Below are positions 1,943 through 4,774 of a stretch of 17,974 bases of DNA, piece after piece; within the stretch, counting starts at the first letter, position 1, and each line of letters begins with the position of its first letter. Location: the NCBI GenBank assembly GCA_030740155.1, contig JASLXV010000064.1, forward strand, positions 1 to 17,974, given 5' to 3'. A program made the position numbers and the translations under genes. The notes beneath the pieces are model-generated. The model was given only the letters and a program-made list of their open reading frames with translations, was not told the DNA's origin and did not search any database. This DNA comes from Dehalococcoidia bacterium (GTDB taxonomy: Bacteria; Chloroflexota; Dehalococcoidia; Lucifugimonadales; UBA3495).

Positions 1943-3121
1943 ATGAGTCTCAGGGGCAAAGCTTGCATAATTGGCATCGGCGAGACGCCGCATCGGAGGA
2001 ACTGGCCAGGTAGGACCGAGCGCGGCCTGTGCGCTGAGGCCGCTGCCATGGCCATCGCCGACGCCGGTCTCCGCAGAGAGGACATCGACGGCCTCATCAC
2101 CTTCGGGGGTCCGACCTACCCCGGACCCATGGCAGAGTACATCGGAGTCCGCCCGATCCATTACCAGGCGGGCGTGAGCATGATGGGCTCGAGTTCCGGG
2201 GTGGCCCTCACAACGGCCGCGGCCGTGGTTCACTCCGGGATTGCCAAGTACATCCTCTGCGTGTTCGGTGGGGGGCGCGACGTCGCCTGGGACCGGCGCA
2301 TGCTGGTCGTCGGGCCCAACACGCGCACCGAGTTCGAAGACCCCTACGGGATGGCTGCCGGGGCCAACACGATGTACGGGCTCCTCTACACCCGGCACAT
2401 GCACGAGTACGGCACCAAACCCGAGCAGCTTGCCAAGTTGGCGGTGGACCAACGGTTCAACACGCTGAAGAACCCTCGCTCCGCGTTCGCCGCCGCCGGG
2501 CCCATCACTATCGACGATGTTCTCGCCTCCCGTTACGTAAACTACCCCCTGCACCTGCTGGAGTGCGTCATGCCGGTTGCCGGCGCCGCAGCCTACATCG
2601 TGGCCTCGCCGGACAACGCCAAAGCGTCTCCCAACCCTCGCGTCTTCGTCCTCGGGGCAGGCGTCCACGGGGGGTACGCGTCGAGCTGGACAAACCCCAG
2701 GATGACCACGGTGCCAGCGGCCATATCGGCCCGAAGCGCCTTCGAGATGTCCGGGTATAGCCCGAATGATATAGAGTTCGCTGAATTCTATGATTGATAC
2801 ACCATCCTCGCGGCCGTGAGCCTCGAAGATGCCGGATTCTGCAAGAAGGGTGAGATTGGTCCCTTCCTGGAGTCTACGGACCTGACTTACAACGGGACCT
2901 TCCCGGTCAACACCGATGGCGGCCAGCTCTCGTCGGGCCAGTTGAATCCCGCCGGGGCCAGCGGGTGCCAGCAGATCCTGGAGGCGTTCCGCCAGTTGAC
3001 AGGCCGCGCCGCCGAAGAGGGGCGCCAGGTATCCAAACACGACTTGTGTATGATCAACACTTGAGGGGGACCTCCGGGACAGATGGTCTCGGCAGTTCTC
3101 GGCACCGAAGCCGCCCTCTAG
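1943..3121 (+). CDS. Thiolase-superfamily (SCP2-thiolase/Ltp2-like) protein, predicted selenoprotein with two in-frame UGA codons (U285, U374), 392 aa
   Basis: One continuous frame: ACIIGIGET...AIADAGLRREDIDGL...IEFAEFYD-TGA(2795-2797)-YTILAAVSLEDAGFCKKGE...PVNTDGGQLS...EAFRQLTGRA...LCMINT-TGA(3062-3064)-GGPPGQMVSAVLGTEAAL-TAG(3119-3121). Read-through gives a normal thiolase length and ends just before the DUF35 start. Confidence 0.85.
2803..2831 (+). promoter_or_regulatory. Candidate bacterial SECIS hairpin after UGA 2795-2797
   Basis: CAUCCUCGCGGC [CGUGA] GCCUCGAAGAUG: 10 of 12 positions pair. The loop starts 17 nt after the UGA and has G at loop position 2. Confidence 0.65.
3066..3100 (+). 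promoter_or_regulatory. Candidate bacterial SECIS hairpin after UGA 3062-3064
   Basis: GGGGAC-CU-CCGGGAC [AGAUG] GUCUCGG-CA-GUUCUC: 7-bp upper stem and 6-bp lower stem (with G-U pairs). The loop starts 16 nt after the UGA and has G at loop position 2. Confidence 0.6.
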
Positions 3122-3132
3122 GATGGATGACC

Positions 3133-3549
3133 ATGACTAACCAATATGAAAAGCCGCTTCCTATCCCAGAGAACCCGGCGCCTACCCGGCCCTACTGGGA
3201 GGCGGCGAAACGGCACGAACTGGTACAGCCCCGCTGCAAGAGGTGCAACGACTTCTTCTGGTATCCCAGGGAGCAGTGCCCCAACTGCTTCTCCCAGGAC
3301 CTGGAATGGGTGACCGTCAGCGGCAAGGGTAAGGTCTACGCCTACACCATCGTCTACCAGACGACGCACCCCGCCTTCCAGGATGATGCGCCCCACGTCC
3401 TGGCCGCCATCGACCTGGAGGAGGGCACCCGGCTGATTTCCAACGTGATAGGGTGCCCCGTTGAGGATGTCAAGATCGACATGCCGGTGACCGTTGTCTT
3501 CGACGACGTAACTCCGGAGTGGACGCTGCCCAAATTCAAGCCTGCTTAA
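3133..3549 (+). CDS. Zn-ribbon/OB-fold protein (DUF35 / ChsH2-like), thiolase partner
   Basis: KPLPIP...PYWEAAKRHELVQPRCKRC...YPREQCPNC (CxxC-x10-CxxC), then VSGKGKVYAYT and IDLEEGTRLISNV. Start at ATG 3133 (or 3127), directly after the thiolase TAG. Confidence 0.92.
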   Translation: MTNQYEKPLPIPENPAPTRPYWEAAKRHELVQPRCKRCNDFFWYPREQCPNCFSQDLEWVTVSGKGKVYAYTIVYQTTHPAFQDDAPHVLAAIDLEEGTRLISNVIGCPVEDVKIDMPVTVVFDDVTPEWTLPKFKPA

Positions 3550-3811: not shown

Positions 3812-4774
3812 ATGGGCATCGTTAACACGGTCCTTGGACCCATAGATTCCAGCGAACTGGGAGTCACCCTCAGCCACGAGCACATCGCCACGGGGTCGGC
3901 CGGAATGCACCGAACCTATCCCCAATTCTTCGACCGCGAGACCGTGATACGGGACGCCGTTGCAGCCTTGAAGGAGGCCCATGCCGAGGGGATTAGGTCC
4001 TACATCGAGCCCACCACCTTCGACATGGGCCGGGATATCGAGCTGATACAAGAGGTATCCAGACTGAGCGGCGTCCACATCGTCGCCGCCACCGGCAGCC
4101 ACCAAGCCATACCCCGCGTCTTCCGCACCGCGTCTCCTGACGCCATCGCGCCTCTGTTTATCAAAGAGGTGGAAGAGGGCATCGAGGACACGGGCGTCAA
4201 AGCAGGAATCATCAAATCGGCCAGCGACAGAGGTGGCGTAACCGATCTGGAGGAGACCGTGCTTCGGGCCGTCGCCAGGGCCAGCAAGCACACCGGGGCG
4301 CCCGTCTTCACCCACACCTGGTCTCCCGACCGGGTGGGGGAGCAACAGGTCCGCATCCTCCAGGACGAAGGTATGGACATGAGCCGAGTCTACATTGGAC
4401 ACAGCAACGACACCCGGGACGTGGACTACATCGTCGGACTGCTCGAGACCGGGGTTTGGGTCGGCTTGGACCGGTTTCCCGGTGGCCGGTTCCCGGGCGT
4501 CCCACTCTGGCAAGAGCGCACCCAAATCGTCAAGCGACTGATCGATGAGGGCTGGGGTGGACGGATCATGCTGGGCCACGACTACTCCTTGCCCAGCGGC
4601 CAACCTACGCCGGAGATGCGGGAGCAGCGGGCCAAGTATCAACCGGAGGGGTACAGCTTCATATCACGGCATGTCCTGCCCTACTTGAAGGAGCTGGGAG
4701 TTACCGGCGACGCCATCCAACAGATCATGGTCGAGAACCCGCGCCGGTTTCTGGAAGGACCGGCCACCCGCTAG
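3812..4774 (+). CDS. Phosphotriesterase-like (PTE/PHP) amidohydrolase-superfamily protein
   Basis: ATG 3812 after SD GGAGG. Motifs VNTVLGPI...LGVTLSHEH (HxH), GIIK, FTHT, IGHS, LGHD and IMVENPRRFL; 320 aa. Confidence 0.92.
   Translation: MGIVNTVLGPIDSSELGVTLSHEHIATGSAGMHRTYPQFFDRETVIRDAVAALKEAHAEGIRSYIEPTTFDMGRDIELIQEVSRLSGVHIVAATGSHQAIPRVFRTASPDAIAPLFIKEVEEGIEDTGVKAGIIKSASDRGGVTDLEETVLRAVARASKHTGAPVFTHTWSPDRVGEQQVRILQDEGMDMSRVYIGHSNDTRDVDYIVGLLETGVWVGLDRFPGGRFPGVPLWQERTQIVKRLIDEGWGGRIMLGHDYSLPSGQPTPEMREQRAKYQPEGYSFISRHVLPYLKELGVTGDAIQQIMVENPRRFLEGPATR

Follow-up and report, generated by a model that had tools for sequence, protein, structure and literature searches.

Does the TGA at positions 3062-3064 of a thiolase-fold gene in a Dehalococcoidia contig end the protein, or is it read as selenocysteine (Sec, U), and what would selenium do at that position? 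The window, i.e., the whole stretch of DNA that was analysed, is 17,974 nucleotides long. The frame opening at ATG 1943 contains TGA at codons 285 and 374 and runs to a TAG at 3119-3121, 392 aa in total. As the initial annotation had it, the TGA at 3062-3064 lies in frame, read-through yields LCMINT-U-GGPPGQMVSAVLGTEAAL followed by that TAG, and a DUF35 gene starts just beyond, with in-frame ATGs at 3127 and 3133 (5 and 11 nt past the TAG). The features are as follows.

1943..3121, + strand: Sal/Ltp2-like thiolase-fold gene, 392 aa, two in-frame TGA, terminal TAG; PF22691 at residues 251-388
2186..2188, + strand: Gly82, replacing the thiolase nucleophilic Cys
2795..2797, + strand: TGA, codon 285, predicted Sec in Y-D-U-Y; counterpart of catalytic Cys304 of CtSal; alternates with Cys
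3062..3064, + strand: TGA at codon 374; predicted Sec of the U-G-G loop, in the slot of the classical CxG motif
3065..3121, + strand: the true stop and the 18 codons read through before it, which encode the GG turn and the last beta-strand (381-387)
3074..3092, + strand: SECIS-like hairpin in the proximal position, with a 7-bp stem and the loop AGAUG at 16 nt from the UGA, within all four published bSECIS criteria
3095..3112, + strand: site where most homologues form the distal hairpin (loop GGUC, 37 nt from the UGA); degenerate in the window gene
3133..3549, + strand: DUF35 partner gene (ChsH2-type zinc ribbon plus OB fold), 138 aa; adjoins 68 of 73 U374 genes with enough flank

The TGA at 3062 is confirmed in an RNA-library contig spanning 2901-3171 with 0 differences, and parts of the gene are also found in RNA-library contigs of two studies. 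A public DNA contig over 1800-3700 likewise shows 0 differences, although it may itself be the source of the window DNA. A nonsense mutation or sequencing error is ruled out by the conserved TGA in homologues and by the independent contigs with 0 differences.

Downstream of codon 374, the 76 close homologues that carry TGA there (U374 genes) have pN 0.23 and pS 0.53, compared with 0.23 and 0.69 upstream. Variation past the codon falls mainly at third positions, Ser379 is encoded by both codon families, and the next stop lies exactly 18 codons on in 68 of the 76, after which conservation collapses. By this substitution pattern, the 18 downstream codons are evolving as protein up to a shared stop. 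The expectation that read-through restores the GG turn and the last strand of the fold holds up, as the constrained segment forms the strand at 381-387 in the predicted structure (an 11-sequence model with mean pLDDT 59, and pLDDT below 50 at 242-284, 324-342 and 375-380) and is covered by the alignments to the top structural matches.

These results bear directly on the alternative that translation truly stops at UGA374, or that the codon is decoded at a low level as Trp, Cys or Gly, with a shortened or regulated product. Such a stop would agree with TGA ending 1428 of 3446 long ORFs in the host genome, with databases holding the family cut at the TGA, and with there being no Cys homologues close by. 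However, it would delete a last core strand that is aligned in all top structural matches, and it leaves the constraint on the downstream codons as protein to be explained. A metagenome pattern that samples only the N-G-x-G-G...M context matched 76 loci with TGA at 374 and returned no match with TGC, TGT or TGG; with the codon left open, 122 of the 125 matches listed were family members, all with TGA, and three were unrelated. Neither TAA nor TAG replaces this TGA in the 76 U374 genes or in those 122 listed matches. We consider a genuine stop, or decoding as another residue, very improbable.

Codons 374 and 285 among homologues

The homologue set comprised 196 loci, 193 of them distinct; counts were made on the 112 with scores of 395 bits or more, the query among them, and the 81 more distant ones were set apart. 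Among the 112, codon 374 is TGA in 76, Asn in 35, Thr in one and never Cys, Trp or Gly. Position 285 is Cys in 72 and Sec in 33, and the combined states at 285/374 are C/U 43, U/U 33, C/N 28, A/N 7 and C/T 1, such that U285 always accompanies U374 and occurs in 0 of the 36 sequences lacking it. The initial annotation had judged homology support to be weaker for 374 than for 285, and the opposite was found (TGA in 76/112 versus 33/112). It had also proposed aligning close homologues for TGA or Cys at this codon and for conservation of the 18 codons beyond; the TGA and the constraint were there, but Cys never was. The pattern it had named as adverse, with homologues ending at 374 or having Gly or Trp there, is absent, and the homologues continue. 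On this distribution, 374 is the constant, earlier of the two predicted Sec sites and U285 is optional.

Among the matches listed from 61 related genomes, all those above 48% identity carry one or two internal TGA codons and none at 40% identity or below carries any. The named relatives that share this TGA belong to Dehalococcoidia/SAR202, and no relative was found in viral contigs. Across 150 distant cluster representatives residue 374 varies (Asn 31, Thr 14, Gln 11, others), with Cys in only two, one of which is at 40% identity and has Ala285. The usual Sec/Cys pairing is thereby absent at 374, a point against the selenocysteine reading. Several database representatives break off immediately ahead of one TGA or the other, and the 284-aa fragment of the window gene belongs to a cluster labelled 'acetyl-CoA acetyltransferase'; genes truncated and misnamed in this way distort metabolic reconstructions of SAR202-type bacteria.

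A maximum-likelihood tree was built quickly from 93 rows after removal of near-duplicates and short sequences, with U treated as C and the root at the midpoint; in it, all U374 proteins fall in one branch (SH-aLRT 99) among Asn374 relatives that include non-Chloroflexota. Within this branch, two lineages have Asn again, one of them also with Ala285, and U285 is confined to a sub-branch where it toggles with Cys. Met381 accompanies U374 in 74 of 76 proteins; the Asn relatives have Gln or Glu381, and one reverted protein has Glu381. Our tentative reading, which we hold as possible rather than probable, is that Sec374 arose once from Asn and falls back to Asn and not to Cys, sulfur being no substitute for selenium here. 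For the close Cys285/Asn374 relative in genome G166, reversion through loss of the Sec system was considered and ruled out, as that genome has selB and tRNA-Sec.

Downstream hairpins and the selenocysteine machinery

The hairpin previously described 16 nt downstream of UGA374 is present: a 7-bp stem (3074-3080 with 3086-3092) closes the loop AGAUG at -9.6 kcal/mol. This lies inside every bSECIS criterion described in PMC13188914, namely a stem of 4-16 bp, a loop of 3-9 nt with an early G, a spacing of 16-37 nt and an energy of at most -7.5 kcal/mol. Taken alone the window hairpin is unremarkable, with shuffle z scores of -1.1 to -1.7 and 25% of 1426 ordinary TGA stops of the host genome folding as well. 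At U285 the window has a bulged stem only, which the perfect-stem test misses.

Across the family, a bSECIS-like hairpin follows 55 of 74 U374 codons, compared with 7 of 35 Asn374 codons, and 11 of 33 U285 codons, compared with 2 of 43 Cys285 codons in the same clade, the background being 132 of 1426 ordinary TGA stops (9%) and 8-9% of background codons. The hairpins occupy two registers, a proximal one with its loop at 16-24 nt and a distal one with its loop (mostly GGUC) at 30-37 nt. In 167 distinct sequences, 48 have the proximal hairpin only, 88 the distal only, 27 both and 4 neither, so that one or the other is found in 163, as it is in 11 of 35 Asn374 sequences; the hairpin cut-off of -5 kcal/mol was set after seeing the data, and all hairpin counts come from related, non-independent sequences. 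One stem pair covaries (T-A 38, C-G 36, T-G 2, G-C 1, not deduplicated), with pairing kept in 77 of 77, and joins a synonymous Val third base to the first base of an Asn/Asp codon. RNAalifold gave no single consensus hairpin; two helices were 62% and 72% paired, and slid controls matched or beat their covariation score.

The 3.6 Mb host genome has selA, selB, selD and tRNA-Sec, and its selD itself carries a TGA. Of 54 TGA-bearing genomes, 51 have selA and the other three have selB and tRNA-Sec; because selA is also present in 19 of 26 other genomes tested, this co-occurrence discriminates little. Genome-wide reassignment of TGA is ruled out by the number of long ORFs that it terminates in the host. 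ARAGORN placed tRNA-SeC on host contig C96 and listed no tRNA-Trp, which is probably unassembled in this 94% complete genome.

On the sequence evidence assembled here, UGA374 is very probably recoded to selenocysteine, and UGA285 likely is too. SelB-tRNA(Sec) would bind the hairpin 16-37 nt downstream and insert Sec, and one 392-residue protein would be made with both codons read as selenocysteine.

Relation to Sal-type aldolases and the role of residue 374

The initial identification as a thiolase was not borne out; the protein is of the Sal-type, aldolase-like kind. Its best sequence match among solved structures is CtSal (PDB 9MYR; E 4.6e-65, ~34% identity), which is also the top, tied structural match (Z 22.7, rmsd 7.0, 319 aligned). 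Gly82 aligns to the thiolase nucleophilic Cys and is Gly in 75 of 76 U374 proteins, and the GHP histidine is replaced by Gln333 in all 76. As the nucleophile position is Gly82, thiolysis is excluded.

CtSal and its DUF35 partner CtShy form a bile-acid C5 side-chain retro-aldolase of Comamonas testosteroni. CtSal requires Tyr302 and Cys304; Cys304 is supported by Gln347 and Gln352, and an oxyanion hole is proposed to consist of the Gln161 side chain and the amide of Gly391 (PMC12329534). By alignment, Tyr302 corresponds to Y283, Cys304 to U285, Gln347 to Q328, Gln352 to Q333, Gln161 to A141, Gly391 to G376 and Thr389 to U374. The window protein keeps equivalents of Tyr302, Tyr305, Gln347, Gln352, Arg216, Gly89 and Gly391 as well as the DUF35 partner, and shows the Sal residues Tyr283, Gln328, Gln333 and Arg197; the YDCY-type Tyr/Cys and its two supporting Gln are all present, with Sec for Cys. 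In contrast to CtSal, it has Sec374 for Thr389 and Ala141 for Gln161, leaving the Sal oxyanion hole incomplete (Gly376 is kept, and residue 141 is Ala in 73 of 76). Its DUF35 protein, unlike CtShy, stands alone, has four Cys and lacks a hydratase domain, and no steroid pathway context was seen.

With classical thiolases (CxS, NEAF, GHP and CxG motifs; TIGR01930) the protein shares the fold, and its U374-G-G likely corresponds to C378-x-G380, but it has Gly82 for the nucleophilic Cys, YDUY for NEAF and GQL for GHP, and scores 18 bits against the TIGR01930 cut-off of 240.55. SCP2-thiolases and Ltp2-ChsH2(DUF35) (6HSJ, 6OK1) share the subfamily fold and the xDCF-type loop position of U285; SCP2-thiolases, however, retain the N-terminal Cys and GHP, whereas Ltp2 uses YDHF and a second Tyr where the window protein has Gln333.

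When aligned by profile to eight classical thiolases, the last loop fell into registers that conflicted and had low confidence. A published structure-based alignment sets the CxG motif on NGG of TLP1, with Asn on the acid/base Cys378 (PMC3406046), and the CxG main-chain nitrogen is described as contributing to an oxyanion hole (PMC6790690), which together would place U374-G-G on C378-x-G380. The earlier assignment of 374 to the loop bearing the classical acid/base Cys agrees with this match and with the CtSal alignment, and U374 likely occupies the Cys378 slot. Among cluster representatives, Gln141 goes with Thr or Ser374 (five listed cases) and Asn374 with Pro or Ala141; because the type of residue 141 tracks that of 374, the 374 side chain may face the thioester. 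We regard an active-site position for Sec374 as probable.

Our best explanation as a whole, at a probability of roughly 0.55, is a full-length 392-residue selenoprotein that is a Sal-type, DUF35-partnered, acyl-CoA aldolase-like enzyme with Sec374 in the classical acid/base Cys slot. The ancestral Asn374 probably supplied an oxyanion-hole amide, the role of Gln161 in CtSal (Ala141 here). With a pKa of about 5 for Sec, residue 374 would be ionised at neutral pH; it is predicted to work on the acyl-CoA thioester as a base or nucleophile at C-alpha, or at the carbonyl, Cys/Sec285 and Tyr283 would shuttle protons, and the C-C bond of a 3-hydroxyacyl-CoA is predicted to be made or broken in an aldol-type step. 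A selenolate donates protons poorly and so is hard to reconcile with the role of general acid that has been proposed for Cys304 of CtSal. We lean only slightly toward acid/base chemistry at Sec374 over redox chemistry.

The main rival keeps Sec but makes 285 and 374 a redox pair (a selenenylsulfide in C/U proteins, a diselenide in U/U), which would switch the enzyme on and off or take part in redox catalysis. The HDCF and CxG Cys occupy equivalent places in space, all 76 U374 proteins carry a chalcogen at 285 (43 Cys, 33 Sec), U285 is never found without U374, and one paralogue clade (seven sequences, Ala285 and Asn374) lost both at once. Yet Cys285 is present in all 29 other Asn/Thr374 relatives, so its presence needs no pair, and a Cys374, absent from close homologues, could form such a bond too. 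A Cys88-Cys378 disulfide switch is known in a thiolase (PMC4595758), but no redox partner gene recurs nearby in the 31 loci compared. On balance we think a redox pair unlikely. Still less plausible is that the two chalcogens bind a metal ion polarising the substrate, as in a class II aldolase. Two soft ligands would share one active site, and many homologues have extra Cys (Cys212 in 58/76, Cys382 in 44/76); however, the window protein has Val at both positions, and CtSal is described without an active-site metal (PMC12329534).

As clues to the substrate, neighbours at the 31 loci gave only DUF35 and paralogues as recurrent. In the window, the gene is flanked by a CMD/AhpD-like protein (147-695, + strand; E 1.5e-5, below Pfam-typical strength), a divergent enoyl-CoA hydratase (883-1686, - strand) and a phosphotriesterase-family protein (3812-4774, + strand), none of which recurs widely beside homologues.

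Novelty and natural variants

Table 1 of the 2026 catalogue PMC13188914 has no thiolase-fold entry among its 119 prokaryotic selenoprotein families, and PMC13188914, PMC12013277 and PMC13326102 do not use the word 'thiolase' in their main text. Our literature search found no paper on a thiolase-fold selenoprotein, although the contents of BSepDB and the supplements may bear on this, and no selenoprotein-named NCBIfam model was among the matches listed. Like the catalogued selenoproteins (PMC13188914), the window gene has an in-frame UGA, an in-gene bSECIS-type hairpin and database truncation; unlike theirs, its alternative residue at 374 is Asn and not Cys. According to PMC12013277, all known selenoproteins seem to have Cys-containing homologues, and the method of that work filters out Sec sites that lack them. 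The proposed Asn-to-Sec origin and the two-register hairpin are additions of the present analysis.

Most catalogued selenoproteins are thiol-type redox enzymes discovered via Cys/Sec pairs. A thiolase-fold family that is widespread and has an invariant Sec in alternation with Asn would be a new selenoprotein family and a near-exception to the rule on which search pipelines are built. If our reading is true, two chalcogens (Se/S or Se/Se) converge in a C-C bond lyase fold, and abundant ocean Dehalococcoidia would hold a new non-redox or redox-gated selenium chemistry hidden from Cys/Sec-pair searches.

The natural U/U, C/U, C/N and A/N versions would offer, assayed side by side, a clean test of the role that selenium has beyond that of sulfur. 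Another chalcogen-free version is a close full-length representative, P0002, with Asn285 and Val374 (LYDNFS, NGVGG). In an Asn374 relative (L162:4780-5955, minus strand; G440:C136), a single in-frame TGA stands one residue before the nucleophile-position Gly (K-U-G-S-A-G) and is followed by a 7-bp hairpin; no close copy of this gene was found in 24 other genomes of its family, and the TGA is possibly a third Sec site or a private nonsense change. The gene at L044 (G019:C16) has both TGA motifs, but frame breaks near residues 235 and 301-307 spread it over three frames, through decay or assembly error. A tandem paralogue beside a U/U gene (L157-L160, L177-L179) has Ala285 and Asn374, both chalcogens being gone, and keeps a remnant of the proximal hairpin. 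The same genome as the window has a second two-TGA paralogue (L046:3445-4623; G000:C25:25444-26622) that is 56% identical, with NG-U-GG and a proximal hairpin.
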